A DNA stretch of 63,995 bases, counting the filler, from Thelocarpon superellum (Eukaryota), in assembly GCA_026025795.1 (NCBI GenBank). It is 5 parts of 5 records of this genome, joined end to end, with 100 filler letters (N's around TTAATTAATTAA, not from the genome) between each part and the next. Parts side by side here need not be neighbours in the genome. Positions count along the whole stretch, not along the records: positions 13,102 to 26,091 come from JAPEUG010000470.1; 4 more parts are not named here. The stretch is one strand, 5' to 3'. A program made the position numbers and the translations under genes. Shown in pieces: positions 13,002 through 54,913 of the stretch (positions within the stretch are counted from its first letter, which is position 1; each line of letters opens with the position of its first letter). The notes under the pieces were generated by a model. That model searched no databases. It worked only from the letters and a program-made list of their open reading frames with translations, and was not told the origin of the DNA.

Positions 13002-13101
13002 NNNNNNNNNNNNNNNNNNNNNNNNNNNNNNNNNNNNNNNNNNNNTTAATTAATTAANNNNNNNNNNNNNNNNNNNNNNNNNNNNNNNNNNNNNNNNNNN
13101 N
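13002..13101. other. Artificial contig-join spacer (N44-TTAATTAATTAA-N44)
   Basis: Six-frame-stop linker flanked by N runs. The identical structure occurs four times in the window. Confidence 0.97.
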
Positions 13102-14886: not shown

Positions 14887-17115
14887 ATGGCGACACCACT
14901 CGACGCCATCAAATCCTCATTGCCGCCGACTACCGACCCGCTGACCTTTCTGACCATCCTCGAGTACAACTTGACGCCGGACCTGCTGCCCGACCTGTAC
15001 CAGATCCTCCAAGACCCCACCCTCACCTCCAACATTGGCTGGGACTTGATCAGCCTCCTGACCCCGCTCCTCCCCGCCTCCCGAGAGTGCCTGCAAGAAG
15101 TCGCTCGATTGGGCAATCCTCGAGAATGTGTGCTCAAGGCTACGGAGTGCTTGCGTCAAATCGACTTTGAGAAAGTCTCGGGTTATGAGCCGCTACCTTC
15201 CACCGATGCCGACCCAGCTTCCGCGCCTGCACCCGCATCTGAACCAGCATCTAAGCCCCTGCCCGAGCCTGAGTCTGGCCTCGAGCCTGTCACTGAGGCT
15301 ATCACCGAGGCTGCCACCGAGTCTACCATCGAGCCGACCATCGAGCCTACCACCAAGCCTATCACCAAGCCTGTCCCCGAGTCTGGCCCCGACCCTACCA
15401 CTGAGCCTGCCACCAAGCCTATCACCGAACCAGTCCCCGAGCCTGCCTCCGAGGCCAACCCCGAAGAAGATGCAGAGAGAGAGGAGCCGCCATCCGCAGC
15501 AAAGGTCACTCCGTCGCAAACGCCGCTACTGACCTTCACCGCTCTCCTCGCCGTCCTTTCGACCCTGCATCCCCGCATCAAGTCCGCTCGACCGTCCCGC
15601 TTTCTTTCCTCGACCCTCCAAGCCCTCCTCGCGACCTATACCGATGCCACGCATCATTTGCCCACATCGCAGGTGGATGAAATCACCTCGGAAACCATCC
15701 GCTTCATCAAGTCTGTCTCCGGACGGAAGCGGCCTGTCCTTCCTCCACGACGATCCACCCAGGACATTAAGCCGTCTCGGGAAGCTGGCCCAGACCCCGA
15801 GGCCCAAGATGAATCTCCCTCGGCTGAAGAGCTAGTGCTCACGGAGCGTCTCTTGCAGTCGTTCGTCACCCACATCCTCGAAGACTACGTTCTTTCGCTG
15901 GATGTCATCATGGCCTGGTCCGCTCGATTCGAAGAAAAGACACGGCCGGAAAGAGTCATCTCTGGCCGTCCAAAGTTGAGCCAGAAGTTTGCCACCGACT
16001 CGACACTCCAAGAGCAGGAGTCGACGATTGGACAACTCGTGGCCGTGGCTCAGGATCTGAACTTGTCGAATGAGGATTTAATCCGAAGCATTCTCGGTCC
16101 ATTTCCCGAACCATCGGATGATGACGGCCTTCCGAACCAGCCATCGGACATTCCCTTGTCCAAGACTGGCGCGCTCTTTCTCCTTGCGTCTCGAATCTCG
16201 TCCTCCGTTCTGTTTGGCTCATCCGTCTCGCTCCCAACCCTCTCCATCTTTCCCGAACATGCGGGCCTCTCGAAGACCTTCATTGGCCCGAATGGGGTAG
16301 AAACTATTGGCTCGGAGAACGAAGCCGTGGCCGATGCAGTCATTGTCCTTGGCCGATGGGCAATGTACCGGGGAAAGCTGGGAGAGATGAGTGGTGTCGA
16401 GGAAGAAGACTTTACCAACTACCTCCAGGTATGAACACCGAGATGGCAAGTGGCTCTCTACTCACAACTCCAGATTCTCTCCCTCCTGTCCGCCAACCAC
16501 CCCTCACCGGAGATCCGGTACAGCGCGCACGTGTTATGCTCGTCGGTCCTTCACGCGCAGCCATCCGATCTCACACGTCTGGCGTTCATCCTGGACACGC
16601 TGCAGCACTGTCCATTTGAGAACCTCCGCGGCAGCGCCGTGGGCTGGTTCAAGGATGAGACCTTGACCGCCACGTCGCATGTCTCCGAGGACGGCCCCGT
16701 TTCCGTCTTTGCCACGCCCGTAGCGCTGGAAACGCTCGCACCCTACCTCTACCCGGATCTCGGCCCGGTCCTCGAAACCCCGCCCCTCACCGAGGCATGG
16801 TTTGCGCTCAAATCCAGCCTCTCTTTCCACCTCGCCGCGCTCAACCTGCACTACCTCTTCCTCACCGCCTCCCATCTGCACGCACTGCTCAAGATCCCTA
16901 CGCTCTTCCGTACGCACGACATCAAAGCCAGCTATCTCGACCCGCTCCAGCGCTCGACCGACCGTTTCCGTGAGAGTCTCGCCAGTGGCGCTGGCCCGCT
17001 CCTGGATGAAGAAGGCCCCGAGGGCGTTCAAATGGCAGTTGCGGATTTACAGCTACTGCAGAATGTGTTGGCTCGGGTGTGGGAGAAAATGAATCGGCAG
17101 GATGTGTCTGAATGA
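14887..17115 (+). CDS. YAP-binding/ALF4/glomulin (DUF1760, Ybp1-like) family protein
   Basis: N-terminal LPPTTDPLTFLTILEYNL...IGWDL...ARLGNPRE motifs typical of fungal DUF1760 proteins. A 45-nt intron (16429-16473) joins to an exon with HPSPEIRY...CPFENLRGSAVGWFKDE. Confidence 0.8.
15210..15462 (+). repeat. Degenerate 12-nt coding repeat giving an E/P/T/K-rich low-complexity insert
   Basis: Recurrent gagcct/aagcct-nnnacc units; protein EPTIEPTTKPITKPVPE...EPATKPITEPVPE. Confidence 0.8.
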
Positions 17116-18500
17116 TAGATGATGGATGATTGATCTCCTTGTTGACCTCCTTTTTTTCCCCTCTTCTCTGGTCGGCTCGGCTCATTCCTTGATTAAAATG
17201 TGGCAGCGAACGAAATCCACGATATGAGATGAAATGGAATAAGAAGTGAACAAGGCCTGATTCTACCCACGATATGATATGACACGACATGGCAAGAGGA
17301 ATCCACTGACCCAGAACCCATCTCCACCAGGCACACAATTGCTTTTCTTTCTTTTACTCTACTCTACGTATATGTTCACATGCGTGCAGAATTCTCCGTA
17401 GCTACGTGTTCACGTTGATCGCCAGGCTGGTCAGGTAGATTGGGCTGGGTTGGTTGGTGAAATGAGGCAGTCATGGTAGGTAGGTAGGCTAGCTAGGTCG
17501 TGAGAAGTAGAGACAGAAAGTGCATTTCCCTTGGAATGGATCTCATCTCATCTCATCTCATCTCCGCTGCTTCTCCCTCTTCTCCCGTTGTGCCGCCCCG
17601 TCCGTTGACCATCCACTACCCTCGCCACTGCCACTGCCACCGTCACCCTTTTTTCTGTCTGTGTCGCCGCATCGAAAGGGGTCAAAAGGGAAAGTCACGA
17701 AAGGGGTGCAGGAGGAGCACGAGGAGGAGGAGCAGAAGCATGCAAACGAAGCAGAAAAGGGAATGAGACGGAATGGGAGCACTTCGTAACGTCCGCGCTC
17801 GTTGCTTGCTCGCTCGCTCGCTTTGTCCCTCGCTGTCTGCTTTGCTCTTCCTCGCTCGTGCCCTGCGTTCCTTTTGGGGGAAGAAGATGAAGGGGGTGCC
17901 ACACTGGTAGCAGATAAAGAAGAAAAAGAAGTCGTCGTCCGCCCGTCCACTATCCGTCCGTCTGTCCGTCTGATCCCAGGCCCCCCACTTGGCGGTCCCA
18001 GCTGCTTGTCGGAGCTCTCGAGGCTGAGGTGCACCGTCCCGCACTACGCTTTGCTGGTTCGTAATCGTAAAGGTGTAGTCGTGAGTGTGCACCGTGCTGC
18101 TCGAGGTCCGTGGTTTTCTTCCTCTCTCCGTCACCTCCTCCTCCTCCGTCTCTATCTCTGACTCTCGCGATGGGCTTGCGCGCTAATTGGCTCGCATGGT
18201 GGTGGGTTGATATCGTCGTCGCTCTCGCTCTGTCTTTTGCAGGTTCGTCGTGGGGATTGATGTTTCGAACTTGTGCTCTGCTTCATGGGCTTGTCGAAGT
18301 GAAGCTGGCATCGTTGTTGTCGAAGCAATGGATGACCGAAGGCGAGGAGAGATGGAGGACGAGTAGATGAAGTCATGGACATGCACGCGCGAAACCCAGA
18401 GAGTCAGAGGATGCAAGAGCGAGAAGAGGAGAGGAGACAAGAGAAGAGAAGAAGATGATATGTGCTGAGGTGGGAGGGAGGGTGCGATGACAGAGGGCGT

Positions 18501-18701
18501 CTACATGACGCAGCAACCCCAGCCGGGTTGACCTGGGAATGAGAGAAGAGTCACGGTTAGTTGGAGATTGAGCGTGGACAGGAGAAGGGATGGGTGATAG
18601 GAGGGAAGGATGGAATCGATCCACTCACTCTGAGAGTCAACGGGCTTTGGGGAATCGTTCTGAGCGGCCGAGGCCGTGGCGGTGACGGTGACTGGAGACA
18701 T
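18501..18701 (-). CDS. Candidate a-factor-type lipopeptide mating pheromone precursor (34 aa spliced, C-terminal CaaX), mfa-1/ppg2-like
   Basis: ATG at 18701 in a good context (CAAAACAATCAAGAATG). Intron 18533-18628 (GTGAGT...CTAAC...CCCAG). Spliced product is MSPVTVTATASAAQNDSPKPVDSQSQPGWGCCVM*. TATA box upstream; cyanase on the same contig. Confidence 0.8.
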   Translation of the reverse strand: MSPVTVTATASAAQNDSPKPVDSQSEWIDSILPSYHPSLLLSTLNLQLTVTLLSFPGQPGWGCCVM

Positions 18702-18731
18702 TCTTGATTGTTTTGTAGAGCGTGAGAAACC

Positions 18732-18891
18732 CTGAAGTGATGATGGTGATCGTCGTCAGAGTGCTGTGCAAACTTGAATATGGAGTGCTGCGCCAAGGTA
18801 GTTGTGGTGGGCACGTTTTCACAGAGAAGGGGCGCGGAGGATCGGCTGTGGTGTGGAAGAAGGATGGAGGAGGAGAAGTGGAAGCACTTAC
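18732..18891 (-). other. Probable 5'-UTR intron of the pheromone transcript
   Basis: Strong AG|GTAAGT donor at 18891. CTGAC branch point at 18755-18759 and CAG acceptor at 18732; an alternative acceptor lies at 18764. Confidence 0.5.
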
Positions 18892-18981
18892 TAGAAGGCC
18901 TTTGTGGGATTGCTGTTGTGCGGCTGGGTGGTTGTGACGGTGCTGTGAGTGAATCCAGCAAGAGGGCAGTCTGTCAAAGGG

Positions 18982-18989
18982 CTTTTATA
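18982..18989 (-). promoter_or_regulatory. TATA box (TATAAAAG) of the candidate pheromone gene
   Basis: Plus-strand cttttata. Canonical TATAAAAG in a GC-rich genome, ~280 nt upstream of the ATG and upstream of the UTR intron. Confidence 0.7.
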
Positions 18990-19163
18990 AGTAAGCTCGA
19001 CGCTTGGAAGACCCTTCAGATCTCGAGTTATCCAGAGCGGGATACATATTCACGGTTCATGTGACTCAAGTGACGGGTGAACAGCGGCAGATCTTTCGAG
19101 ACTAAGAGATGAATGACGGTAGCGGCTGTCTTAGTATTGTACCTGCTTCATATTGTTGCGGGC

Positions 19164-19415
19164 ATCAAAGATGAGGATTCGGAGATTCTTTGATCGTCGA
19201 GTCCGCCTGACCATCAATGCTCTTGCAAAGCAACAAAGAGAGGGTTCTGGATCACGGCGGTTGAGGCATATGTTCACGCGGCACCTGCGACTTCGAAGCC
19301 TCTTCCCGCTGCCCAGTTTCTGCACCCTGATGCATGGTGTCTTCCCGTCTATCTCGCCACCACGTGTCTAGACCCGGGCGGCCTGCTAGCTGACGAAAGA
19401 TTGGGGCGATCAAAG
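19164..19415. promoter_or_regulatory. Cluster of HMG-box-type (A/T)CAAAG motifs upstream of the pheromone gene
   Basis: ATCAAAG at 19164-19170, CTTTGAT at 19188-19194, AACAAAG at 19232-19238 and ATCAAAG at 19409-19415. Confidence 0.55.
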
Positions 19416-20183
19416 AAATAGTTCGGGTCAATCGAGCATAGCGGAATCGATGTGCACCATTCGACGCTCTCGATCTCATCGCATGCCGCGGGACGCAGGA
19501 AAGATGGGCATGGAGCTCCATTTTCTTCTGCTAGACCAGCTGACTTCAGTCGAGACCATAAGAGCATTCAGCCTGGAACAGCCACAGCACGGGCCAAGGC
19601 AAAAGGTCACGGATGTCCCGACTACCTACCCGACCGGTGGTCTAGGTAGCATTCGAGGCATACACATACACATAGAAGCGTCTGATGACCACCCAGTGCG
19701 GCTGGTAGATCTCGTGCAGTCGATAGTGCGGAAGCGGCTCGTAGTTCCAGCCAAGCAAGCTCTCGGCCACCCATCCGTCCATCCATCACGACACTTGTGG
19801 ATGAATGGACGTTCAAGGTTGAGGAGGGTTGGAGGCGAGTCCAATTCAAAGCTGACATCAGCATGGCCACCATCCCGCTCGAGTAAGGCCAATCTTCGGC
19901 AGCCAATCAATGCCGATCTACTCCCCTCTTCTTCACCACGCTACACGGCCATCTGTCCGATATTGTCGTGTTCATCATCTAGATCGATCGCGGTCCAGGC
20001 ACGACCGTCATGTCACGTCTAGCAGAGTGGCCGCGATACGCTGAGATAGTCGTGGAAAGGATGTATGAAATATGTACTATGAGGAGAAAAATAAAAGTGA
20101 CCGCGTCGGTCATACAGAGAGAGATCAGGCGTGACAGCTGGTCGAACGGCGTCCTTCCTCCTCTTGTATGTACATGAGGTCGA

Positions 20184-22054
20184 CTATGATCGCCCTAGGC
20201 CTCGTCGCCGCCTTCTGTATCCTGGACTAATCGAAGCTCCCAGTGGCACGGGCTGCTGCGGAATGGCGCCAATGGGGCTGGTAAGGACCCTCGAGGGTGT
20301 GACGAAGATGACATATTGCCCGTCCAACTCGGTGATGCTGGGAATCCGGATCCGATCTTCGGTAAGTTCCAAGACGAATTGATTATCCGGTTCCAGGGGT
20401 TGGTACACGCCCGTCGAGTCTCGGTCCCGCCGAGCGACGACGAGCTGCGTGGTCGGCGACGCTCCTCCAGGGAGCATGTTGGACAACATCATGCGATTGA
20501 CTACGGGCGTGCATGGTCAGCGTGGGCTCTTGCCAAAAGTCCATGCCGCGCACATACAGGGAAATCGGATTTCGGCCGCTTGCACTTCACCATTCGTCGC
20601 GGTACTGTTGATCTTCCATGCGAACGAGTCTAGCCGGGTCAGTCACAGCTAGGGACGCGAGGGGAGAAGACCGACTGAGAGACTGAACCCCCGGCGGCAG
20701 GCTCGCCGCATCGACGCCGTACTCCAGGTCGACGTTGAAAGTAAAGGTATTGGCCGATGTGATGGAAAGGCGCAGGCCGTCGATGAACTCGCTGTCCTGC
20801 CTGCCCGGGCCCCCTATCACGTTCACCGTGCGGGCATCACCGAAGCCGTACTGCATGAAGATGTTGCTGGTGTCTTGGGTCTTGCGGCCCAACAGCAGGT
20901 ACTCTCCGTCCAGCGATGTCATCTTGACGATTTGTGCCTTTTGCTCCGAGCTGCATCGTCAGTTAGCAGTTGACCTACCCTCTTCACACCACCCGGTCTA
21001 CCCACATGTGCACATTTCGTTGCGGCTCGGACACGACCCATGACGTTCGATCGTCCGAGAGTTTTCCGACATACGTGTTGGATGGGTCGACGCCCATCTG
21101 GGCGAGGGCGCTGGGGTCGTAAGGAAGCTCGATCTTGGCAATGAGGTCATACGCCGGCTCGCTCATCTGGACGATGTAGGAGTAGGGATGCACGGCCACC
21201 CAGGGCTCGCCGCTCGAACCCGTCACGAAGCTGGCCGCGAGGGGCGAGTTGTTTTGCGTCACGACCAGAGTCCGGTTGCTGGGAGAGAGCAGGTCGAGCG
21301 CCAGGCCGTCCTGGAAATGTTGATCCGTCCGCTCCATCTGCACGGCGTCAATGTCCGACCACGTCTGCCTTGGACGAATGACACGTACCTGACCAAGTAC
21401 CTCGATGGTGTCGCCAAAGTTGGCCACCGCGGGATCATTTGCCAGCGGGGATGGACCCGGCGGTCCAGGCGCTACGGTCACGACCGTGGTTGGCACTCCC
21501 GGAGCTTCTGTTACCACTGTAGCTGGCGCTCCCAGAGGCTCTGTCACCACCGTAGTAAGCGATCCCGGAGTCTCTGTCACCACAGTAGTAAGCGATTCCG
21601 GAGCTGCCGTGACTACTGTCGTCGGCGGCGCCGGAGCGGCTGGCGGGGGAGGTGGGGGTGCCGGAGGCGAGGGCGCTGGCGCTGGCGCTGGCGACGCCAA
21701 AACTGGAGGTATTGGGGCAATTGGCGCGGGGGCAATCGGTGCCGGTGCGGGCGTCGGTGTCCCTGACGATGTGGGGACCGTCGTCGGTGGCACCAGCGTT
21801 GCCGGCACTGGCGATGGCGTGCCGGTGGAGAGCGTGAGTGGGGCCACCGCGGTACCGGGCCCGCCACCCACGGTGATAGGGGAGAGCGCCATGGGCGCCC
21901 CGGTCAAGCCTGTCAAAACTAGGACGGAGGTGCCGCCGGGAAGGGTATTAAAGGTCTCTTGCGCCATTACGACTTGCGCACCGCACAAGAAGGCCCAAGA
22001 CAGGGCAGTAGGAAGGGAGGCGCGGATGCGCCATAAGGAGGGGACCAGCCCCAT
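20184..22054 (-). CDS. Secreted Pro/Thr-rich protein with a conserved-looking uncharacterised C-terminal domain, 4 exons
   Basis: ATG at 22054 with a signal-like N-terminus and Pro/Thr repeats. Globular part DLIAKIELPYDP...NTYVGKL...SWVV...KMTSLDGEYLLLGR...SFAWKIN. Three GT-AG introns keep the frame to the stop at 20184. Confidence 0.75.
21470..21625 (-). repeat. Coding tandem repeat, 5 x 11 aa (TTVVT[A/E/V]xP[E/G]xx)
   Basis: PTTVVTAAPESLTTVVTETPGSLTTVVTEPLGAPATVVTEAPGVPTTVVTVAPG in the translation. Confidence 0.85.
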
Positions 22055-23218: not shown

Positions 23219-23831
23219 ATGGCATCAGCACTTGACGTACGTATACCTTTACCGTGCTTCAGCAGTCGAACCCCGAAATGACAGGTCGGCTCAAACTTTC
23301 GCAATAGGCATCGCTTCTCCCTCGCCTGCCCCACGCCGCCTCGACGCTATTCGACGCCAAGGCGGAAAAGGGCATCACATTCGAAGCGCTCGGGAAGGCG
23401 CTCGGACGAGACGAGGTAGCCGTGGCGGCCATATTCTACGGGCAGGCCCAGGCGTCGGCGGAGGACATCGAGAAGCTTGCGGCCGCGCTGGGGCTGGAGC
23501 ATGGGACGCTTCGGCAGCAGCTGCTGGCCTTTCCGAATCGGGGCCAGGTCGTGGAGATGCCGCCCAAGGAGCCGTTGATCTATCGCTTGTTTGAGATCGT
23601 GCAGAATTATGGGTATGCGTACAAGGCGGTGCTAAATGAGAAGTTTGGGGACGGCATCATGAGTGCCATTGCTTTCTCGACTCATGTTGAGGCCGAGACG
23701 GATCAACAGGGCAACAAGTGGGCGGTGATTACCTTGCGTGGCAAATGGTCAGTCTGCCTCCCGAAGGATGAGCTTCTTATGATGCTGGTGCTGATGATGC
23801 TCGACACAGGCTTCCTTACACTCGTTTCTGA
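23219..23831 (+). CDS. CYN1: Cyanate hydratase (cyanase)
   Basis: Exons MASALD | ASLLPRLP...[16 protein letters not shown]...[18 protein letters not shown]...[11 protein letters not shown]...ITLRGKW | LPYTRF*. Two GT-AG introns. Confidence 0.96.
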
Positions 23832-24903
23832 GTCTTGTAGAGTTGTTGTGGTGGTCCATGCTTGCTTGGTCCATATGACCTCACTAGTCATACTACGATT
23901 TGACCCGATCTCAGTCTACACTCACCAGGGGGCAAATCAGAACGTGTAAGCACCTCAAGGCAGCGAGCGTCGGCGTTGAGGAATAAGTGAGCTTTTCCGT
24001 GTCGACAATCAGATCGATGCCGCCGGCCTGCAAGCAGCGGTGATCCGCGAGATCCCTTCCCGTTGGTACGGCTACTCTGTCGCTGTCAGCATGGGTTCGC
24101 AACACTCGAAACCAAGCCCGCCCGCATTGAACGCATCCTCCTTCGCCGCCGCGGATCTCATGGAAATCAGTCGTCCCACCGCACCTCGTCCAATCCGTTC
24201 TCTCTCCGCCCTAGTCGACCCCGCCCAGCTGACGAATCACCCGACGCCCTTCCGCCTGGGCACCGGCCCACGATCCCATGGATGGATCCAGTGTCCAATG
24301 CCAGTTCGACCATCGGCCTGCTCGACCCCCCCTCATGTTGGACTTTGAGCGGCCCCTGTCGCTGCGCGAGCGCCAAGACCGGGTTCGGGCCCGCTTGGCC
24401 ATTACCCCGTCCGTTACCCCGTCGCCTCCAATGGATGACGGAGAGCAGACGATTGGTTGTGCGCGACGCTGCGTTCGATGTTTTGCTACCCAGCACCAAG
24501 CACTTGAAGGACTGCCCTGTGACTGGGAGAATGGAAGAGCCGGGATCGCGTCCTGAGCGGGCCATGGGTCCAAGGAAAGTGACATGTCCACACCGGAGGA
24601 ACGCGTGAATGTTATGATAGCGACGACGCTGGAACAAGAGAATTCACACAGCCTCTTCGTGCCTGTAGTTTCATATCACTAGTAAACAACGTTGCAATCT
24701 GTTCGGTCATCAGCCCCAACTCTTCCGACTCATCGCCACAGTCGGAGAGTGTGGCCCTTCTCCCTTCTCAAGTAGCTGCATCCTCACCCGCTGTCCTCTT
24801 CTCTCCACCAGTATCACAGACCTCCCTCCTCCAGTGCGACCTTCGTCGGTCAGTCGTGTGCAGTCGACGCTTCCCACACCGAACAGATAGACAACGCGCA
24901 AAC

Positions 24904-26091: not shown

Positions 26092-26191
26092 NNNNNNNNN
26101 NNNNNNNNNNNNNNNNNNNNNNNNNNNNNNNNNNNTTAATTAATTAANNNNNNNNNNNNNNNNNNNNNNNNNNNNNNNNNNNNNNNNNNNN
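26092..26191. other. Artificial contig-join spacer
   Basis: N44-TTAATTAATTAA-N44. Confidence 0.97.
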
Positions 26192-26898
26192 GTCGTTCTC
26201 GGCTTGCGAACCGGTCTACCTTCATTCCCTCAGACCACGACGAGGCTGGATGGGGCAGCGACTAGGGATACCCTTGTGACGTCAAACGGGAGGAACTTCT
26301 ACGTAGCATGCAGTGAACCCACCATTGCCGTCGTGTCGGATCGCCCCACACCGATGGCAGGGGTGGGCGGTGGACAGTGGCGGTGGAGAGCAGGTGGTAG
26401 GTGGTGGGTGGTGGGTGTTGGTCGTCGTTTGGCGGGCGGGCGTAGACGGTAGGTCGCCATAGAGGCTGACTGGCGACCGATGGCGGTGGGTAGGGCGATC
26501 GCTACGTCGTCTGTATCAGATTTCTCCGCTGCGGCCGCGTTCCGGGGTGTGGAATAGACTCGACATGCAAGTCAGGTACAGAATGGCGTCGGCAAGGCAC
26601 GTGAGTCTGTGCGTTCGCTCTAACCTGGTTGGGGTAGTGGCTTTGGCGCCTCATGAACCGAGCGCATCAGAGGAGGACGACATATCGAGTTTGGGTCGCA
26701 CCTATACCAGGATCTACGCGCGGTGAACACCGCAGTGAACGCCTTACTCGTGTCCCGGGACGCGTACACCGAACGTCCCCCGTGCCACCCGCCAGAGCTG
26801 CGCGTTACTCGTACCCGAGCCACGCCGGTCCACGCCGGTCATGCCCCCCTTGCTGTTCCACCGTAGCCCGGGACCTTGGCGCCCTTGTCACGGGGATC

Positions 26899-30400
<3,502 letters not shown>

Positions 30401-32446: not shown

Positions 32447-35400
32447 TCATATGGCCTGTTCCGCAAGCACTTGCTTGGCGACTTGAATTGCCCGGTCAGG
32501 CATGCCTATGCAACGCGTCAGCGAACGTAACGACACATGAGAAGAGAATGCCTCTCACCCGCAAGTCGCGCTACTTTGAGCGCATGCGATTGTCGATTGA
32601 CTCCCGGTCGAAGCCGGTGGATGTAGGAGAAGCTTCCGTCCCCGTCTTCCACCACGTCGGTGCAATAGCAGGCGAGATGATCCATGGAGGCCGTGAGATC
32701 GGCAAGGGCGTGAAAGTGCGTTGCAAACAGCGTGCGACAACGGTTGACGTGGTAGAGGTGTTCAAGACATGCATAGCCAACAGCAACGCCGTCTTCCGAC
32801 GTCGTACCGCGGCCGACTTCATCCATGATGACCTGCGAGCATTCAGCGCCCAAGCCATATCCACATCGCCGAGAGACCCACCAACGACCGCGACGTAGCT
32901 TGCCGCAAGATGGCAGCCGACTCCAGCATCTCCACCATGAACGTGGATTGATCTTGATACAGATTGTCGGCCGTCCCAATCTGCATCCGGTCAGCTTAGT
33001 GGACACACCCGATCTCTCGAGCCCTCGAGACTGACCCGACTGAAGACCTGGTCAACCAGGCCAATCTCTGCAAACTCGGCGGGAACAAAGGACCCCGCCT
33101 GGGCCATGATGGTGATCAACGCAATCTGTCGAAGAAACGTGCTCTTCCCCGCCATATTGGGTCTGATAGATGGTTAGCGTTCAATCATGGCCGCTCCATC
33201 TCCACACCCACCCCGTGATCAGCCAAATTCGCTCATTCTCGCCAAGGAAGCAATCGTTGGCGCTGAAATGCCTCCCTTGCTCTTCGAGCCCGCGTTCTAC
33301 CATCGGATGCCTGCCTCCCACAATCTTGCATCCTGGCCTCGCGTGGACCAACGGCCGAACCAATCCATGCGTCGTGGCCGCCGTGGCAAAGGCGCAGGCA
33401 ATGTCAAGCTCGTCCAATACCGCCGCATTCCGCCGGAGCAGGCTCAAGTTCAGGATGACCTCGTCGCGCAGGCGGCGGAACACAAGCTGCTCCTCGGCCC
33501 GGATCTGCACCCTGATTTGGTCCATCTGGCCCCCCAGACTCGTCCATTCCGGAAGGTGAAAGGAGCGTGTGCTCTTGCTGGCGCTCACGCTGCGGAATTT
33601 CTCCGTCGACGAGACGGGTGAGGTCGTGTCCTTACCCTTGACGTGGCAGATATGTCCCAGCCCAGGTGTCCAACGCAGCGTCAGACTTTTGGCTCCGTAT
33701 TGCTGCCTCAACATCTCGGCCAGATCCAGCTTCTCTCGATACATCTGGTCAAGCCGATGGTGAAGTCGGGTCAGCGTCGGACTGGCACCTTTCCTCATCA
33801 CCCATACGTCCTCGTCCGACCAGTTGGGCGACTTTGCCGTGTACGCATCCGCGTCCAGGTGGGCGGTCGAGCGTCGGGGAAACCTGAAATGAGTGGTGCT
33901 AGATCTTTCACCTCCGTCGACAGCTTGTGCCTGTGACATGACCCCGGCAGCTTCGTTCTCCTGCAGATGCTGTCTCCGGCTGAGGCCTTCCACGTCGATC
34001 GCTTTATTGATTCGTGCGGCGAGCTTCTTGGGCGCGTTCAGATCGACGCGTCGCAGCAGCGCAACGAGGGCGTCTCGGTTGGGATCGACGTCGGGACGCG
34101 AGGAGCCCGGCTCCCCCGACGTCTCATCGGCAAGGAGCTCGACGGTCATCTGCGTGGCCGTGATGGCCTTGCACAGTGACAGCAGGTCATCATGGTCCCC
34201 TCGACCCAGGGAGAACTTCTGTACCAAGCGCTGTGCGTCTTGAGAATGACGCAGTGTATCGATCACATCTTGTCGTAGCACCACCCGCTGGAGGAAAAAC
34301 GAGACCAGGTCTAGCCGGCCGTTGATGATGGAGAGCGAGGTAGACGGTGCCGCTGGTCCGGCCGGGCCGGGAGGTCAGCGATTGCAAATGCTCTTGGGTC
34401 GGGGACCTACTCAATCGGTCGCTCAGCAATCGTGCACCGCTGCTGGTGACGGTCTTTTGCATCGTATGCAGTAAGCTGCCCCTAGTCAGGCCATCTTTGA
34501 GCGTCGTCTTGATCTCCAGGGAACGCAGACTGTTCTTGTCGATCAACATGCTTTCGTTTGCGTGCTGGCGAATCGGCCGCTGCAACTTCATCGGCAGCCC
34601 TTGTAGCTGCACCTTCACGTACTCCAGCAGCCTCGTCCCGGCCGTGATCTCTTCTCTCGTAAAAGCACGCGCCTCGTCCGAGGCCATGGGGCTCTCGAGC
34701 TCCTCCGCCCAGTCATCGATCCTAGGCTCAAGGTTCGAGGGAGGGTGGTGCATCATCAGGTGGCGATAGTCGTGAAGCAATGAATCACATAGGTGATCTT
34801 GGAATTGCTGCCCGTGTCGGTCGTAGATAATTTCCCGGGGCGCGATCCGCGAAATGGCCGATGGCAACGATGCCATCGTCGTAGCCTGAGTGAAGAAGTC
34901 GCCGGTGGAGAGATCGAGCCATGCAAGACCTACCGCGCCAGGGTGCGACTCTGCGTCCGGTGACGTGCCCTGCGTCGGGTGGCTGGGCGGACCACACTCG
35001 GCGGCATCCGTCACGGAGATGGCCAGTAGGTAATTGTGCTCGGCCGTCTTGATGAAGCGTTCATCGATCAACGTGCCCGGGGTGATGACGCGAGACACCC
35101 TTCGGTCAAACATCAGACCCCCAGATCGCACTTTCTCCGACGCGTCATTGGCAACCTCCTCGCTGATGGCCACGTGCTGCTCTAGGTCTTGCACCAGGAC
35201 CTTCAAGAAACGGTCGAGCTGAAAGAATGGAAACCCCGCCTGGCACTGGTCAGGAGGGTGATCTGGACCTTGACCTCGACCTCTTCAAGCCACATACCAT
35301 CGGCACCGGGCCAGCGTTGGTTGACTTTTGGGCCACCTTGAGGTTCAGCAGGGGCCCGTAACGTTCGGCTTGCTCAAAGTACAGCTATCCAGCGCATCAG

Positions 35401-36394: not shown

Positions 36395-37879
36395 TCACTG
36401 TGTGGTGCACGACGTCGTTTCGGCGTGGGCGCGAGGATCGTCATCGTCGTCGACCATGGCATTCCCCTGCGCTCTCGCCTTCTGCTCGGGATCAATGTCT
36501 TCGAGCGTGTGATCGGAGATCTCGTCGGCCATTTGATCTTCGGGCGGCGTCGGCAGCGTGCTGGCCTGACCCAAGATCTGCTGAAGCTGGTCCAGTTCTG
36601 CATCCGACGGCTGGAAGGTGGCGTTGGGGAATTTCACGTCAAAGCGAATGTAGAGATTACCAAAGAGGAGCTCCTCCTCACGGTAATAGTAGGGCATGCC
36701 TTGCCCCGGAATCATCTTGATGTCACCTGCGCGGCACGTGAGTTAGCCTACACGTGAGCCATGGGGGGGAGAGAGAGGCTGGCCGAGCGTACCAGGACTG
36801 AGGTATCGGCGGCGTTCGACGTGGACCCGCAGCAAGCGCTTGTCGAGATGCTCGATATAGAGGTGGCCGCCCGTCAGCGCCGTGACCAGATCGATCTCGG
36901 CGAGGTGAAAGAGGTCGTTGCCCTTGCGCTCAAAGCGGTCGTGCGGCTTCTGTCGGATTTCGAACTGCACATCGCCCGGCAGCGCGCCGGGCGCCTGGTC
37001 GCCTTCGCCGGGGAAGTCGAAGACGGTGCCGTTGCGGACGCCGCGGGGGATACGCAGATGGAGAACCTTGCGCTCCGTGACGATCTTCTTGCCCATGCAC
37101 TGCTTGCACCGGCCCTCTTCCGAAATGATCTCGCCCGAGCCTTCACATTTCGGGCAGGGCGTGTGGAACTGCTGCCGCATCGGCCCGATGCGCCGCTCCA
37201 TGCGCAGCATGCCAACGCCGCCGCAATCTCCGCACTCCTGCACGGCGCCCTTCTTGCCACCGCGACCTTCGCACTTGGGACAGATGACCGATTTCTGCAG
37301 CGCCAGCTTCGACGTCTTCCCACGATAGATGTCCTCGAGCGAGACTTGGTGCGGGTGGATGATGGGCTTCACCTTTTGGGGACCCCCGCGCCCCGCGTCG
37401 CCGCGGAAGAGGCTACCGAAGCCGCCGCCGCCGCCGAAGCCGCCACCTCCAAAAGACGCGCCGCCGCCGCCGAAGAACTGCGAGAAGAGGTCCTCGGCCG
37501 ACATGCCGCCCCCACCGCCGCCCTGCTCAAGCCCTTCTTGGCCATATTGGTCGTAGATTTGTCGTCGCTGGGGATCCGACAGGATACCATATGCATGTGA
37601 GAGGTCCTTGAACTTCTCTGCTGCCTCGGGGTTGTGCGCATTCTTGTCTGCGCGAGTGTCCGTCAGCACCGGTCACGCTCGGCGGAGGCCCGCGCGGAGG
37701 GAGCACACGTACCCGGGTGATGCTTTAGTGCGCCTTTCTTGTAGGCCGTCTTGAGCTCGGCATCGGATGCCGTGGGGGCAACCTGTCCTTTGCATGAGCT
37801 TTACCCCCACCTCGCTCGTCAAGGCAGCGAGGAGATGACCTACCCCGAGGATATCATAGAATTTGGTGTCCTTCACCAT
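36395..37879 (-). CDS. YDJ1: Type I Hsp40/DnaJ chaperone (Ydj1/Mas5)
   Basis: J-domain MVKDTKFYDILGV...HHPDKN, G/F-rich region, four CxxCxGxG-type motifs, GQGMP and a C-terminal CaaX (CTTQ). Confidence 0.9.
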
Positions 37880-39146: not shown

Positions 39147-39246
39147 NNNNNNNNNNNNNNNNNNNNNNNNNNNNNNNNNNNNNNNNNNNNTTAATTAATT
39201 AANNNNNNNNNNNNNNNNNNNNNNNNNNNNNNNNNNNNNNNNNNNN
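39147..39246. other. Artificial contig-join spacer
   Basis: N44-TTAATTAATTAA-N44. Confidence 0.97.
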
Positions 39247-44587: not shown

Positions 44588-47500
44588 TCACATCCAGAAC
44601 AACCAGCGCACCGCGCGGACAAACCCACCCACCGATCCCCGAACCAACCGAATGGCCACCACGATCAACCACACCCACCACATGGCGCCCAACAGCGTCC
44701 ATTCCAAGAGCACGTAGGCGAATCGCCGTAACCATCGGAAGCGTCGCCGTCGGCGCCGCGCGATGAGATCCAATGCGTCGTTGAGCTGCTTGAGCGCCAA
44801 CGTGTGCGTCGTCGACAGTTCCGCGTTCAGGGCGTCCGCGTCGTCGGCCGCTGCGCGTGCAGTCGGACTGATCTTGTGATTCACCCGGTCGGTGCTCGCC
44901 CTGATCTGGCCCAGCAGTCGCGCCACCGTCGTGTCGCTGAACCGCGTCGCCGCCTGTTCAAAGGCTCGCATCGTCGCGTCCATCTCTCGCGTCTCCACCT
45001 GCGCCACCATCATATGATGCTGTGACCGGGAGCCTCGCAGCGTGGGCCAGTCCGACGGCGACTTCAGTAATGACCGAGGCACCGGCGCCACCTCGTCTCC
45101 GAGCCGCACAATCTCACGCGCCTTGACTCCCGACGACAGCAACAAGGCCCGCACGCGGATGGTCTCGCGCGGATCAGCGGGCGCGCGCGACACCGAGAGC
45201 TCTCGATCGGAGATGCTCCAGTGCCGCCCGCCCGCTGGCCCCGACCGCGAGAGCGGCCGTTGCGTCGCAGAGGCGTCCAACCGGGCCAGACCCGTCATGG
45301 GATACGAATGGCGCACGCCCGCCCGCCCGGGAAATCCAAGCGCCGCATTGAGTCGAGAGTCGGCATCGCGCACGCCGTCATGTGAAGGGGCAACGGCGGC
45401 ATTGGCCTCCCGACCAAAGCCAAAGCTACTTCGCCGAGACTCCACGTCGGAGACAGCCGAGTCCTTTGCATCGCCTTGACGCGCAGGCACCGTGTCCGCA
45501 GTCGGCAGATCAATACGTGTTGGCGGCGGTCGGCCAAAGCGAGGCGATCGCAGTTGGTGCCGTGGCTCTTGTGGCGGCCGGGGGAGTGGCTCGTTGGAGG
45601 CCGTGCCCGTGCCCGTGCCCGTGCTCATGCCCGCCGTCTTCCGCTCGTCTTCTGAAAGACACGTCACGTCCGACGGCTGCCGTGAACGGAGACTAGGCCG
45701 ATCGCGACCGGCGATGTTGCGAATCCCCGGGTCGTGCTCGTCGCGAATCCGGTGGCGGGAACTGGCGTTGGTGGCCCGGCGCCGCAGTCCCGGACGCTCC
45801 TCCTCCACATCCGACGCATCGGACTTGACACTAGACGCCGTCGATGAGACCGTCGGAGTCAGATGATTGTCCTTCTTGCTGAGAAAGTCGCCCACCCGAG
45901 ACACCTCCGTTCGCACAATCTCCTCGAGCCGGCCACCCTTGAAGAAGCTTCGAAGTCGCGAGCCTTCGGGCTCACGGTCGCCCCGCTCGCCTCGCGGCCG
46001 CCGCGTCTCCACCTCCACGCCAAGTCCCTCACTCGTGCGGCGGGACGTCGGCCTCTTGACCAGACTCGTCGCCCGCGGCCGAGCCTTGCCGGCGTGAGAT
46101 GCCTCACGTACCGAAGGTCGGTCCTGGTCCGAGACCACGCGCTTGCGGTCTATGGGATCCGTGACCTTTCGGCTCGGCGAGACCGCTCGGCTATCGGGTA
46201 GCGACAGATCCAAAGCGATGCTAGGGATGAAGCCTTTGGGAACCTGCGCGCCAAGAGCGGCGTTCAGGACCTGCGGTGAGTTGGGTGCGGTGCTGTCAAG
46301 CCCATCCATGGACACACGTGTGGGACCCACGCCGTCCGGGCTGGCACTTCCCCGACCACGCTCCGCCTCGGGCTCCGGTGCCGGGGCGGAGCGCGAGTCA
46401 GGCCGTCCGTGTGGGCGCTGGGCGGATTTCACATCAGGACTGCTGCTGCTCACGACCCTGGATTGATGGCCATCCTTCACCGGCGACTGCCCGAGCGGCT
46501 TCTGCGGCGAGACGCGGAGCGGAGAGTGAATCCCATTCAACGGCGCCCAGTCCTCTCTGCCCACCTCTTTCTCTAGCATGGCCATCATGCGCTGCTCCAA
46601 CATCACGCTATCGCCCGTGTCGAAGACGTCGGTGGAGGGCTCCGGGAAGCCCGTCCGTCCCCGACCGGCCCCGTCATTCGAGTTGGTCGAGGTGGAGGAG
46701 CTGCGCGAATGACCCTTCTCGCGTGCCCACGGGTGGAGGCGAGTCCGGGGCTCGTCGTCCGCCTCGCGGCGCTTGCTTCGGTCGCGTAAGCGGGACCGTC
46801 GCCAGCTGCGAAAGCCACCGCTGTCCCGGTCTTGGTCGGGCGAGGACTTGGCGGCCAGGCGGTTGACGGGCACGTCAGGCGCCGCCTGCCGCGGCTCGTC
46901 GGAGCTGCCACGCGCGGACCCCGGGTCTGGTTTGGACGATGCCGGAAAGATCTTGTGCCAGTGCTGATCTTCGATCAGCTCCTTGTGTGTGTCTTGTTCC
47001 AGCCAGTACGCGTCCGCCAAGCACTCGGCGGGCGTGATGCTCCAGTCATTCCGTGGACGTTTCTGCTTCGCGTTGCCGCCTCCCCATGGCGGGCCGGAGT
47101 TGGGTGAATTTGGGGGGCTGGTGGATTCCGGCTCCGCGTCCGGGAAAGAAGGCAGCCGCACGCGATGCCCGTTACGAAAGGTAGGAAGGGTGGATTCTTC
47201 TTCGACCTGATCCACCCAAGCTTTGACTTTGGTGAGATCGGTCCACCCGTCTCGCTCCGGGTCCACGGGCATCTTCTCGCGCGCGCGGGTTTTCCGGTTG
47301 CGGACACACTGCAGCGGATTGTACGGTCGACTCTCGAACCCCCCCGCTCCCGTGCCCGACGTCGAGCGGGAGAGAGGACGAATGAATTCCAGTGTGACGG
47401 GTGAACTCGGTGCGGTAGAAAAGGAGCCGACTGGGTCAGCTGGCTGCGGTCGGAGGGGAGGCAGGTATTGTAGGAGGTGTTTGTACATGGCGGAGAGTTC

Positions 47501-48457
47501 AAGCGCGGCCTTGGCCTTCTCGGCACGGGCGAGCGTAGCGGCGGAGAAGGTGTATTCCACGTCACGTTCCGACTCCCACGGAAAGGTCGTGGTGTTCTCA
47601 GGGTATGTGCGAATGCTCAGGTGGTTGTGAGCTTCATGATGCGATCTACTCTGGCTCGGGCTCGACCTGCGGTCGCCGCTGGGAGAATGGTTCCGGGGCG
47701 ACGGTCGTTCTTGTCTTGAATATCGCAGACTTCCCCCAGTCGAGCCGGGGCTCGAGGTGGGAGCGGCGGCGGAGACGGTGCGATGGCCGTGGAGGGAGCC
47801 ACTCCCCAACCGGGTCAGGTTTGCGCTCCTCCGTCGGCTTTCGCTCAGGCTCAAGGCGAGATTGACAATCTGGGCGGGATCGGCATCGATACCGATGGAA
47901 GGGGCCGAGGTATGTCGGGCAGAGACCGGGTCGTGCCCCTCGGAGCGAGCTTGTATCTTCCGTCCACTTCCTGCACCTGCACCTGCGCCATCATAGACTT
48001 GGACTGCGCCGTGAGCCAAGGGATCATGGTCGACACGGACGGCGGGCGGAGTGACGGTGGTGACTTGAGTTGCCAGCGGCGAGCCCCCGAGCGACGTCGA
48101 CTGGGCCGAGCGATGCCGCCGATGGGCCGCGGGCGGGGTGGGTAGCGGCCCAGCGTTCGATCCACCACTCCGGCTCTTCCCCTTCTCCGTCTTGCGTGAT
48201 TTGGACACGGGTAAGAATACATGGCCCGATGCGTTCGTCGCAAGATCCGTGTCGAGCAGAAAGCCGCCCGAGCCTTTGGTGCGGTGTCGTCCTTTGATCG
48301 AGTGTCGGCCTAGACCATACCGGTCGTCCTCCGAGTCGCCCCGGCGTCGATCGTGGAGGGCGGCGTCCGGGTCGAGCATGGATGCCGCGCTCGAGGCCGA
48401 GCCCGAGCCCGAGAGGTTGGACGATGGTCCCTTCAGTCCCGTCGACGACTCGGACAT
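44588..48457 (-). CDS. MTC4: Mtc4-like protein (maintenance of telomere capping 4)
   Basis: Motifs RPYNPLQCVRNRK.R and DWSITPAECLADAYW, and a C-terminal hydrophobic segment (FAYVLLEWTLLGAMWWVWLIVV). Likely start MSESSTG at 48457; the ORF stays open to 48685. Confidence 0.75.
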   Translation of the reverse strand: MSESSTGLKGPSSNLSGSGSASSAASMLDPDAALHDRRRGDSEDDRYGLGRHSIKGRHRTKGSGGFLLDTDLATNASGHVFLPVSKSRKTEKGKSRSGGSNAGPLPTPPAAHRRHRSAQSTSLGGSPLATQVTTVTPPAVRVDHDPLAHGAVQVYDGAGAGAGSGRKIQARSEGHDPVSARHTSAPSIGIDADPAQIVNLALSLSESRRRSANLTRLGSGSLHGHRTVSAAAPTSSPGSTGGSLRYSRQERPSPRNHSPSGDRRSSPSQSRSHHEAHNHLSIRTYPENTTTFPWESERDVEYTFSAATLARAEKAKAALELSAMYKHLLQYLPPLRPQPADPVGSFSTAPSSPVTLEFIRPLSRSTSGTGAGGFESRPYNPLQCVRNRKTRAREKMPVDPERDGWTDLTKVKAWVDQVEEESTLPTFRNGHRVRLPSFPDAEPESTSPPNSPNSGPPWGGGNAKQKRPRNDWSITPAECLADAYWLEQDTHKELIEDQHWHKIFPASSKPDPGSARGSSDEPRQAAPDVPVNRLAAKSSPDQDRDSGGFRSWRRSRLRDRSKRREADDEPRTRLHPWAREKGHSRSSSTSTNSNDGAGRGRTGFPEPSTDVFDTGDSVMLEQRMMAMLEKEVGREDWAPLNGIHSPLRVSPQKPLGQSPVKDGHQSRVVSSSSPDVKSAQRPHGRPDSRSAPAPEPEAERGRGSASPDGVGPTRVSMDGLDSTAPNSPQVLNAALGAQVPKGFIPSIALDLSLPDSRAVSPSRKVTDPIDRKRVVSDQDRPSVREASHAGKARPRATSLVKRPTSRRTSEGLGVEVETRRPRGERGDREPEGSRLRSFFKGGRLEEIVRTEVSRVGDFLSKKDNHLTPTVSSTASSVKSDASDVEEERPGLRRRATNASSRHRIRDEHDPGIRNIAGRDRPSLRSRQPSDVTCLSEDERKTAGMSTGTGTGTASNEPLPRPPQEPRHQLRSPRFGRPPPTRIDLPTADTVPARQGDAKDSAVSDVESRRSSFGFGREANAAVAPSHDGVRDADSRLNAALGFPGRAGVRHSYPMTGLARLDASATQRPLSRSGPAGGRHWSISDRELSVSRAPADPRETIRVRALLLSSGVKAREIVRLGDEVAPVPRSLLKSPSDWPTLRGSRSQHHMMVAQVETREMDATMRAFEQAATRFSDTTVARLLGQIRASTDRVNHKISPTARAAADDADALNAELSTTHTLALKQLNDALDLIARRRRRRFRWLRRFAYVLLEWTLLGAMWWVWLIVVAIRLVRGSVGGFVRAVRWLFWM

Positions 48458-49466
48458 AATGGCGGCATCGAGGGGCCTGCTATCGATAGAGCCACCATGG
48501 ATGTGGGGCGGCGCGGCTGTCCGGACGAGATCGTCACCCGGTCCGCACGGTCGCGGGCCTGCATCTAGACGTCTCAGTGGAAGATGGGTGCAGGACAAGT
48601 TCCGCGGGGTCGTGGTGGAGCTTTGGGGGAGCGGGGAGGCGGTGGCAGGGGGGTAGTGCTGTCTAGCTAGAGGTCTAGAGGTCATTTAATGATGCCCTGA
48701 CTCCGACGCTCGGTTCCATGTGATCGGTCGGGCGGGCCCCTGGTCATGTGACCTGCATGATGCCCGACACCGGCGAAACCAGCGGTCCCAATCCTGTCTG
48801 CCCACCGGTCGCGAGCCTGACCTGGCATGCCATCGTCTCGAATCTTACAGCTGCGTGAATTTATGAGGTAGGCGCGAACACTTTCATCGAACGTCTCAAT
48901 CTTTGCGGTGAGCTGGCCGCTTGTGTGACCGCCATTTCGTGGGGTGCTCGAATTCCTGCGCCTGTGGCCGTTTCTGCACCTATTCGAGTCCGGTCCCCCA
49001 TCGCCACCCCTACCTGAGTCGTCGCAGTGATCGAAAAGTGGTAAATTAGCCCGTTGCGAGACTTGGTCACGGAATCGATTCAGCATCTACCCGAGCCTAG
49101 GGATGGCTTTAGGTAAGAGTCTCTAAGCTCTCTGATAGTGCCAGGGGGACCTGGTCACTGCACTAAGCAAGCCAGAGCACCAGCCGGGTCCTTGTCCCCT
49201 TCTGTACAAGTGCTTTTCCCAGCCGAGGGCTCGTTATGGTGGGTGCAACTTTCGAGCGGCCAGGCGGTCAGGCGCCGAAACCATATGCAACGGCTCCTTC
49301 TTCTACACGTCGACAACGTGACGATCATTCCCGAACGTTTTGCCCACCTAAGAACCGGACCAACATGAATTTGATCTGGCCTCCGTCGGACTTGAAGCCT
49401 CGCACTATTCGTAATATGGTACATGCAACGAGAACAGAGACATCGTCAAGGGCAAGAAAGTAGAGG

Positions 49467-51271: not shown

Positions 51272-52166
51272 GACGAGCTTCGTAACTACTGCAATGTGAG
51301 GTTGAAGATGGTATTTCCGCGGCCTGTAGAGCTTTACCGCTGGCTGGAGAACGGTTTGTGTATGAAGTATTCATTGCGTCTAGGCCGTGGCCGGGCTGAC
51401 AATTGCGGGGCCAACAACTGGATTTCGTCACTTTGTCACGAGCACGGACACCGGCAAATCGGCTGAGCGGTTGACAATGACTGGATTGCCCCCACTACGT
51501 CATGCCCACCTCTCTCGACGTGACGGAAGACGCGTTGCTCTTAGGGCGAAGGCATGGATGCATAGATGACATGTAGAATAGAATGTCAGATACCCAGGCC
51601 TCCACTAAGTACATCTAGAAGCGTGTACGTGCTTGGGGCACGATGGATGAACCTTCATGCCGCTAGGAGTGTTCCGAGCAACAACCGCCGACCACTTTGG
51701 CACCTTGGCCGAGAGTGTCTCGCAGCTGTGACTCCTCGATTGCCGCTCAGCTCGCTTCGCGCCCCAGACGTCACGGGCTGACCGCGTGCTCACCAGAACT
51801 TGTACGAGTGCGTTTGAGGGCTTACAAAAAGCCCGGCTCAAAGTCAACCATGCGCAGCAGCAAGAGTACTGCACGACAACCTAAGATCTAGGCTGTCGCG
51901 ACTCGCTGGGAAGTAAACAATTGGGTGCCTGACCCTTGCCAGTAATGGATATCGGATCACTCCTTCACCATGTGAACCGAAGAGGAGGGCAGCACGCGAG
52001 TCTCCAGGAGCTGCCAGCGTACCCAGCCACGACGTATACTAACAGTATCCACCTAGAAACCGGCCACACCTAGAAACCGGCTACTTTTCTCTCGACCCTA
52101 CCTCCACAATCAGCCACAACTCCACCACCACAACTGCTACTTATCAACCCTTAGAGATGTAAGTAG

Positions 52167-52266
52167 NNNNNNNNNNNNNNNNNNNNNNNNNNNNNNNNNN
52201 NNNNNNNNNNTTAATTAATTAANNNNNNNNNNNNNNNNNNNNNNNNNNNNNNNNNNNNNNNNNNNN
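52167..52266. other. Artificial contig-join spacer
   Basis: N44-TTAATTAATTAA-N44. Confidence 0.97.
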
Positions 52267-54171: not shown

Positions 54172-54913
54172 CTTGTGGCTGAGAGCAGAGTAAGGCTGGT
54201 GGCGTGGGACACGGAAGACGACACCGAGGCTGGTGGCGTGGTACAGGGAAGATGAGACAAACCGCATGATTGGCTGAGGATAGGGGTGAGGTGATGGCTC
54301 TCCGGTGGTGAGTCAAGTAATAGCTCGAGCGGTGGGTAAGGAAGCGATTCGTGGACCGCAGGAGGCGCAAAAGCCAGCGGATCAGTGGTCGACGAGCGCC
54401 CGACATCCCCGCCCGCCCGAGCCTCCACTCGTCAGGCCCGGTAAGCCTGAGCTCCGCACCCCAAGCACAGGCGGTGGAGATTGGGCAGCGACGAAGGTGA
54501 CGAGCGCACGAGCATGGCCGGTGAGGTGATTGATTGCAGGCCGCATGGACTCGGACCTCTGTCCTAGTGGAATGCCGCTAATGCACCACACTTGCTCTCT
54601 GGTAGAAGCGGGGTCGAGGGATGACGATGAGGGTCCCTCGATTTGGCCATGCCTGGACGCAGACCAGTCAGGTTTCCCCGATCGAGACCACATGCAGGCA
54701 TGCACCTACGTGCGAGATACTGCAGTCGCGGACGCAGGCTACGGACGCAGGCTACGGATCGATTGGCACGTACATTAGTCACGGTCGCTGGTGAGTTTGA
54801 TGTTTGTGGTGGGCGAGGGTGGCAGGAGTGGGGTGCGTGAGCCTGCAGAACGTCAGAGGAGATGGCGAGCAGACAAGGGAGACGGAGAAGAAAAGTGGGG
54901 TCGGCACCGGGCA

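Follow-up and report, generated by a model that had tools for sequence, protein, structure and literature searches.

The stretch of DNA analysed here (the window; 63,995 nt from the fungus Thelocarpon superellum, assembly GCA_026025795.1) is composed of parts of five records joined end to end, which need not be neighbours in the genome. One part, from JAPEUG010000470.1, contains a candidate gene for an a-factor-type mating pheromone precursor, present on the minus strand at 18501-18989. The candidate occupies a gap extending from ~17112, the end of a PF08568 (Ybp2-type) gene, to ~20184, the stop codon of a Pro/Thr-rich gene, in agreement with the ~3-kb space between a DUF1760 gene and a Pro/Thr-rich gene described in an earlier reading of this DNA (the original prediction). 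DUF1760 is presumably the old name of the PF08568 family. The candidate gene comprises the following parts:

18989-18982, minus strand: TATA box TATAAAAG, read from the sequence
18892..18950, minus strand: exon 1, non-coding 5' untranslated region (UTR), its 5' limit estimated at ~30-60 nt below the TATA box
18732..18891, minus strand: 5'-UTR intron of 160 nt with a GTAAGT donor at 18891, a CTGAC branch site and a CAG acceptor, identified by strict pattern match
18629..18731, minus strand: exon 2, composed of 30 nt of 5' UTR (18731-18702) and the first 73 nt of the coding sequence (CDS)
18628-18533, minus strand: CDS intron of 96 nt in phase 1, with a GTGAGT donor and a CTAAC branch site ~25 nt before the CAG acceptor
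18501..18532, minus strand: last coding part (32 nt), ending ...QPGWG-CCVM followed by TAG (18503-18501)
18300..18500, minus strand: presumed C/T-rich 3' UTR, read from the sequence, its 3' end approximate

The TATAAAAG box, the ATG at 18701, the 96-nt intron and the 34-residue product with its CCVM end all lie where the original prediction had placed them, and the 5'-UTR intron that it called probable has its signals in place, from GTAAGT at 18891 to the CAG ending at 18732 (160 nt). An A is positioned at -3 of ATG 18701. The spliced CDS of 105 nt encodes 34 residues, with exon 2 contributing the S/T/A/Q/N/P-rich pro-region of the precursor and the last exon its CaaX box, CCVM, in which Cys31 is the predicted farnesyl acceptor. 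The 96-nt CDS intron is itself in frame and stop-free, such that its retention would yield a 66-residue protein with the same CCVM C-terminus, a point absent from the original prediction. The spliced 34-residue form is favoured because the intron, read in frame, has a clearly non-coding codon score (-0.588) compared with the two exon parts (-0.029).

The open reading frame (ORF) spans 18501-18755, bounded by an in-frame stop 54 nt upstream of ATG 18701, which argues against the CDS being an upstream ORF in the leader of some larger gene, or its final exon; a gene for a G-protein gamma subunit would be an example. Fungal G-gamma subunits end in Cys-Cys-a-a-X, and the double Cys of the candidate recalls these tails, but its tail is the four-residue C-C-V-M as opposed to the five-residue C-C-a-a-X. 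Pfam returns nothing for the candidate, and none of the 29 ORFs on both strands of the 3-kb gap matches G-gamma (GGL) or any other family at E <= 1. No larger ORF and no family turned up in the gap; downstream of the candidate on the minus strand, there is no substantial ORF before the convergent PF08568 gene is reached, the biggest one starting with ATG measuring 76 residues and belonging to no family. A G-gamma subunit of the Ste18/GPG1 type is thus largely refuted by tail length and the lack of a GGL domain (~60 residues in such subunits) upstream of the tail, and membership in any larger gene is very improbable.

Across both strands of the 63,995-bp window, the TATA box is the sole TATAWAWR match (simulated mean 0.7), and it lies on the correct strand, 281 nt upstream of ATG 18701. 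The 346 nt upstream of this ATG are ATG-free on the minus strand, with the nearest ATG at 19047, above the TATA box; because the leader is ATG-free, the CaaX ORF is the first ORF of a transcript from the TATA promoter. The minus strand of the window has five strict GTRAGT..CTRAY..YAG patterns in all, and the adjacent introns of the candidate account for two. As a caveat to this count, introns of the neighbouring genes carry looser donors (GTATGA, GTGAAG). The plus-strand GC skew reaches +0.34 to +0.47 over 18200-19099, rendering the sense strand C-rich and G-poor. The unique TATA box, the ATG-free leader, the two canonical introns and the C-rich sense strand support the earlier claim of a real minus-strand gene.

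Upstream of the TATA box, we located a compact group of HMG-box core sites, defined by a published consensus (PMC3730723):

19164..19238, both strands: cluster of four A(A/T)CAA(A/T)G cores within 75 bp, 175-249 bp upstream of the TATA box
19164-19170, plus strand: core 1, ATCAAAG
19188-19194, minus strand: core 2, ATCAAAG
19213-19219, plus strand: core 3, ATCAATG
19232-19238, plus strand: core 4, AACAAAG, in the context AACAAAGAG

This cluster is the densest among the 26 A(A/T)CAA(A/T)G sites of the window, and an extra TCAAAG core is positioned at 18974-18979. When the window was simulated 1000 times with a Markov-1 model, four cores in 100 bp never arose (three cores in 6 of 1000), and shuffling the local 300 bp did not reach four either (0 of 20000 mononucleotide and 0 of 20000 dinucleotide-preserving shuffles). 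In Podospora anserina, the pheromone genes MFM (CaaX type) and MFP both bear an ATCAAAG core; the Ste11-type factor PaHMG5 prefers (A/G)ACAAAGAA, and its deletion reduces pheromone transcripts to 0.004 and 0.0004 of the wild-type level (Ait Benkhali et al. 2013, PMC3730723). The core site of mat a-1 in Neurospora crassa is CTTTG (PMC3691137). We propose that the cluster serves as a platform for MAT1-2-1 or Ste11-type HMG factors; it is the best functional hint that the sequence offers and is absent from the original prediction. A motif of the MAT1-1-1 type was not found in the candidate's promoter. Judged by its signals, the locus is likely a real, HMG-regulated, small three-exon gene driven from a TATA box on the minus strand.

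The predicted product resembles known a-factors in its layout. Under the CaaX/CpaX criteria for short ORFs (<100 aa) of PMC13037118, the precursor is short (34 residues spliced, 66 unspliced) and carries CCVM directly before TAG, its length falling within the 21-68 residues of the 60 known a-factors compiled in file S2 of PMC10569646 (Wilson et al. 2023). The first 25 residues consist of S/T/A/Q/N/P to 72%, and a heuristic scan finds no signal-peptide-like core (Kyte-Doolittle 9-residue maximum 1.21; hydrophobic run of at most four). The precursor is acidic (pI 4.2), and its N-terminus is weakly hydrophobic compared with the "hydrophobic" requirement of PMC13037118. An aromatic residue is positioned two residues before the Cys, and X is Met, as in CVVM and CTVM. 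In models of the yeast enzymes, CCVM is prenylated according to three of four predictors (12 of 13 models) and cleaved according to both predictors (13 of 13 models; supplement of Berger et al. 2022, PMC9231725). The a-factor-type architecture claimed earlier is supported when the candidate is set beside the Sordariomycete precursors (short length, polar pro-region, no signal-peptide-like core, an aromatic residue near the Cys and X = Met).

Those precursors, including Neurospora crassa mfa-1, Podospora anserina MFM, Sordaria ppg2 and their Fusarium/Gibberella counterparts, are short single-peptide proteins of 21-24 residues, compared with 34 here. They begin with Met-Pro-Ser, continue through an S/T/Q-rich middle and end in Gly-Tyr-Cys-Val-Val-Met (PMC10569646, file S2). 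The candidate resembles them in its Met-Ser-Pro start, S/T/A/Q-rich pro-region and lack of a signal peptide, as well as in the Gly and aromatic residue just before the Cys and the C-a-V-M end (same file); with Podospora MFM it also shares upstream HMG-box ATCAAAG cores (PMC3730723). It differs in being 10 residues longer, in lacking detectable homology, in having its CDS split by an intron and in belonging to a host of another class. Its a1 position is Cys instead of Val or Thr, and its Trp is two residues from the Cys, whereas the Tyr of the Sordariomycete peptides is adjacent.

MFA1 and MFA2 of S. cerevisiae and other Saccharomycotina precursors resemble the candidate in length (33-38 residues in file S2), in the acidic/polar N-terminal extension, in a Trp close to the C-terminus and in the CaaX end. 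Their X residue is Ala or Val, in contrast to Met here, and they are cleaved in an Asn-Tyr/Trp context, whereas the sole Asn of the candidate is residue 15. Yeast a-factor expression is under the control of Mcm1/alpha2/Ste12; no such motifs were found in the promoter of the candidate. In S. pombe, expression of the M-factor genes mfm1-3 depends on the HMG-box factor Ste11 acting at TR-box sites, and one site of the candidate reads CTCTTTGTTG on the minus strand. The mfm1-3 genes encode farnesylated CaaX pheromones and contain introns (Srikant et al. preprint), and PMC3730723 names the Ste11 site as one of the HMG-box sites (legend to Fig. 7). S. pombe is nevertheless a distant taxon with three gene copies, as opposed to the single copy in the window, where blastn and tblastn reveal no second one.

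The putative a-factor of Leotiomycetes (the BCIN_13g03330 family of Botrytis cinerea), found by homology-independent searches (PMC10569646), resembles the candidate in being small and unannotated, in its N-terminal half rich in S/T/A and in ending C-x-V-M. Its members measure 45-64 residues and are Cys-rich (...CDGYECCCIPIPCTVM), whereas the candidate has just two Cys, both terminal. Membership in this family was rejected: by eye comparison with file S10 of PMC10569646, the family core C-x-E/S-C-D-G-x-x-C-C-C-I-P-I-P-C-x-V-M is absent from the candidate.

Several observations weigh against a pheromone gene at this locus. A Cys at the a1 position occurs in none of the 60 a-factors of file S2 nor in the Leotiomycete entries of file S10 (PMC10569646), and FlexPepBind, the dissenting predictor, scores CCVM as not prenylated (PMC9231725). 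The candidate's promoter contains neither a Ste12-type pheromone response element (PRE; TGAAACA) nor an Mcm1 box, and the HMG motif test was chosen after the cluster had been noticed by eye, making it partly post hoc. Homology searches were all performed with the unspliced 66-residue ORF as query. A word-based search among proteins of 36-116 and 30-35 residues in a collection of 5.8 billion proteins reveals no relative; the same result, with no protein of 30-116 residues sharing words with the candidate, agrees with the original prediction that the gene is probably unannotated. Against 1.84 billion representatives, phmmer returned seven matches at E <= 0.001, all proteins of 698-1433 residues, which were rejected as homologues given their length and the location of their best stretches mainly in the intron-encoded, low-complexity part. 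Codon usage does not discriminate here: 14.9% of 308 null ORFs equal or outscore the 34 codons, and 21.5% of 205 genuine coding chunks score no higher than they do. The strict intron pattern shows no enrichment across the window (10 observed, 10.2 simulated). Finally, a survey of 332 yeast genomes recorded 284,073 CaaX-ending short ORFs (Srikant et al. preprint, 10.1101/2021.09.28.462209).

The empty homologue searches, the non-discriminating codon score and the chance-level intron pattern would also fit an ORF arising by chance in intergenic or non-coding-transcript DNA, with the CaaX end, TATA box, introns and HMG motifs as unrelated coincidences. A census of the whole window yielded 612 ATG-to-stop ORFs of 15-100 residues, with 200 block shuffles as the null. 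A CXXX end occurs in 18 of them (19.8 in shuffles) and a canonical CaaX in two (0.67 in shuffles), while the C-x-[AVILM]-M ending is restricted to the candidate (0.085 per shuffled window). The latter ORFs, expected in ~8.5% of windows, are exactly what the original prediction had sought. Among ~636 shuffled short ORFs, the per-ORF chance amounts to ~1/1000 for a canonical CaaX and ~1/7000 for C-x-a-M, and a whole genome would be expected to hold dozens of C-x-a-M-type short ORFs by chance. The ORF by itself is weak evidence; the surrounding signals carry the weight. If the unit is set by the promoter irrespective of the ORF, the relevant chance is that of a first ORF ending in a canonical CaaX, ~1/1000, and a fortuitous CaaX end would be unlikely. 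The sole TATA box in 64 kb is correctly placed and correctly oriented, no ATG interrupts the leader, which leaves the CaaX ORF first, two canonical introns adjoin each other on a G-poor strand, and the HMG cluster was never matched in local shuffling (0 of 20000 for either type of shuffle). Treated as independent, these coincidences have a joint chance well under 1 in 10000 for the window, and we regard a chance origin as unlikely.

An alternative of a different kind accepts the gene and assigns its prenylated peptide or protein another role, for example as a membrane-anchored or developmental factor; the evidence for a gene and the prenylation prediction fit this view equally. The candidate, however, fits the Sordariomycete a-factor architecture far better than the Cys-rich Leotiomycete protein does, and the Podospora pheromone genes offer a parallel to its dense HMG cluster, in which two cores are ATCAAAG. 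To our knowledge, ascomycetes have no other class of CaaX peptides of 30-40 residues, which also counts against a non-pheromone role. In favour of such a role, the CaaX candidate of PMC10569646 is expressed regardless of mating type in three species, leading its authors to doubt a function in mating, and HMG-box factors of Podospora also govern non-mating genes, such as those for AOX and PEPCK (PMC3730723). We consider a prenylated product outside mating to be rather unlikely.

The original prediction of an a-factor-type pheromone gene is thus partly supported, by the architecture, by the prenylation models for CCVM and, additionally, by the HMG cluster, and is weakened by an a1 Cys that has no precedent. 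We assign a probability of roughly 0.6 to the 34-residue product being the precursor of an a-factor-type, farnesylated lipopeptide pheromone.

The proposed mechanism follows the known biogenesis of a-factor, which comprises farnesylation, aaX removal, methylation, N-terminal trimming and Ste6-mediated export (PMC2134810, PMC2148179). MAT1-2-1, Ste11/PaHMG5-type factors of the sexual programme, or both would bind the sites observed at 19164-19238, and transcription would begin downstream of the TATA box (18989-18982). Splicing would then remove two introns with recognisable signals, one of 160 nt from the leader and one of 96 nt from the coding region, and translation from the first AUG (18701) would yield a precursor that, by the heuristic above, has no signal peptide. 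As predicted from yeast models, farnesyltransferase would act on Cys31 of CCVM, a Ste24/Rce1-type protease would cut off CVM, and Ste14 would methylate the new C-terminus, in the Thelocarpon fungus as in yeast. The second Cys would be lost with CVM after farnesylation of Cys31. Trimming of the S/T/A-rich N-terminal extension would leave ~7-16 residues ending in ...PGWGC(farnesyl)-OMe. The mature form (S)QPGWGC put forward earlier is one possibility among the N-terminal cut sites; a yeast-like cut after residue 15, the sole Asn, would leave a peptide of 16 residues. A Ste6-type ABC transporter would presumably export the pheromone, and a Ste3/PRE1-type receptor of the partner would sense it, as in other members of the family. 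A Pfam scan of 111 ORFs found none of STE3, STE6, RAM1, STE14, STE24 or RCE1 in the window.

The genes around the candidate were identified by Pfam and exon reading, which confirmed the Pro/Thr-rich and cyanase neighbours named in the original prediction. The PF08568 (Kinetochor_Ybp2) gene is in one frame save for an in-frame stop at 16432-16434, located within an apparent short intron (GTATGA...CAG, 16428-16475). The Pro/Thr-rich gene (20184-22054, minus strand) has at least three exons, with one intron carrying GTGAAG, CTGAC and TAG signals and another a CTAAC branch site and a CAG acceptor. The cyanase gene (Cyanate_lyase + HTH; 23308-23946, plus strand) lies 4.3 kb from the candidate. Rfam detects no family in 17000-20300, excluding known RNAs such as intronic small nucleolar RNAs, and exact look-up of 13 window ORFs in the protein collection found none of them.

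Farther along, the window encodes a POLQ/Hel308-type helicase (DEAD, Helicase_C, HTH_61 and POLQ_helical domains; 26638-29862, plus strand), a MutS homologue with domains I-V (32521-35284, minus strand) and a Ydj1-type DnaJ protein (36746-37672, minus strand). An uninterrupted ORF of 1365 residues (44591-48685, minus strand) matches no Pfam family at E <= 0.5 and may encode a large lineage-specific protein. Runs of N form four pairs of 44 nt (352 N) at a nearly regular spacing of ~13 kb (13002-13101, 26092-26191, 39147-39246 and 52167-52266) and resemble deliberate masking, not assembly gaps.

At the right end of the window, Pfam reveals three genes that classically flank the mating-type (MAT) locus:

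57166-58578, minus strand: APN2-like Exo_endo_phos domain, followed in the same gene by a GRF zinc ribbon (56354-57358)
58594-59511, plus strand: COX13/COX6A
61557-63263, minus strand: APC5 (ANAPC5 domain), with a TPR region at 60954-61553

The APN2-COX13-APC5 block classically flanks MAT in Pezizomycotina, where MAT genes usually adjoin APN2. The candidate is ~37 kb from this block, counted along the joined window. The 5.3 kb on the 3' side of APN2 (51000-56350) contain no recognisable gene; in this interval, neither an HMG_box nor a MAT alpha box was found at E <= 1 among 51 ORFs of at least 60 residues or 58 ORFs of 33-59 residues, nor any alpha/HMG signature peptide; no MAT gene was recognised between COX13 and APC5, and SLA2 is absent from the window. 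An aldehyde dehydrogenase gene (49653-51001, minus strand) borders this 5.3-kb segment on the left. Translation of the segment also reveals repeated words, with three ATFDDELS-like copies at ~53.4-54.2 kb and a tandem QSASSTSRHPLPVGILY at ~54.85-55.1 kb. We regard it as quite unlikely, on these sequence data, that the candidate is both the first a-factor-type gene recognised in a lineage of the Thelocarpon/Lichinomycetes type and physically tied to the mating-type region. If both are true, the lineage may have a rearranged mating-type region with a pheromone gene linked to MAT, which would be a step towards the pheromone/receptor loci of basidiomycetes; the TATA box, HMG cluster and intron-split CaaX ORF would then serve as a template in the search for a-factor genes still "missing" from other classes outside Sordariomycetes.

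The DNA polymerase epsilon (Pol2) encoded in the window permits placement of the host. Its N-terminus best matches lichen fungi at 81-84% identity (Thelocarpon, Caeruleum, Sclerophora, Piccolia, Pycnora, Peltula, Lasallia and Candelina). A protein-atlas search with the neighbouring PF08568 protein gave a best score of 0.85, which was uninformative for placement. In a FastTree phylogeny of 41 rows, comprising the window and 40 named matches chosen among 120 listed (80 unnamed or redundant ones left out), the window is sister to Thelocarpon impressellum with a local support of 100 and 82% identity over 2226 columns. The Thelocarpon pair is nested in a clade with Caeruleum, Vezdaea, Piccolia, Sarcosagium, Peltula, Sclerophora and Chaenotheca, and because of this position the host is neither a Sordariomycete nor a Leotiomycete.

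Descriptions of a-factor-type pheromones in Pezizomycotina so far cover Sordariomycetes and one doubtful Leotiomycete candidate, the latter presented by its authors as the first outside Sordariomycetes, with attempts in other classes having failed (Wilson et al. 2023, PMC10569646). Our literature search, which covered few subscription journals, found no report of an a-factor-type pheromone in lichen-forming fungi, Lichinomycetes/Thelocarpon, Eurotiomycetes or Dothideomycetes. Most lichen fungi cannot be crossed in culture, which makes their sexual biology difficult to investigate; a pheromone candidate would permit receptor tests in yeast and the scoring of mating competence in transcriptomes. 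The combination of a TATA box, an HMG-site cluster and a short CaaX ORF, possibly split by an intron, provides a template for searching relatives, in which promoter evidence can pick the right ORF where chance CaaX-ending ORFs abound.

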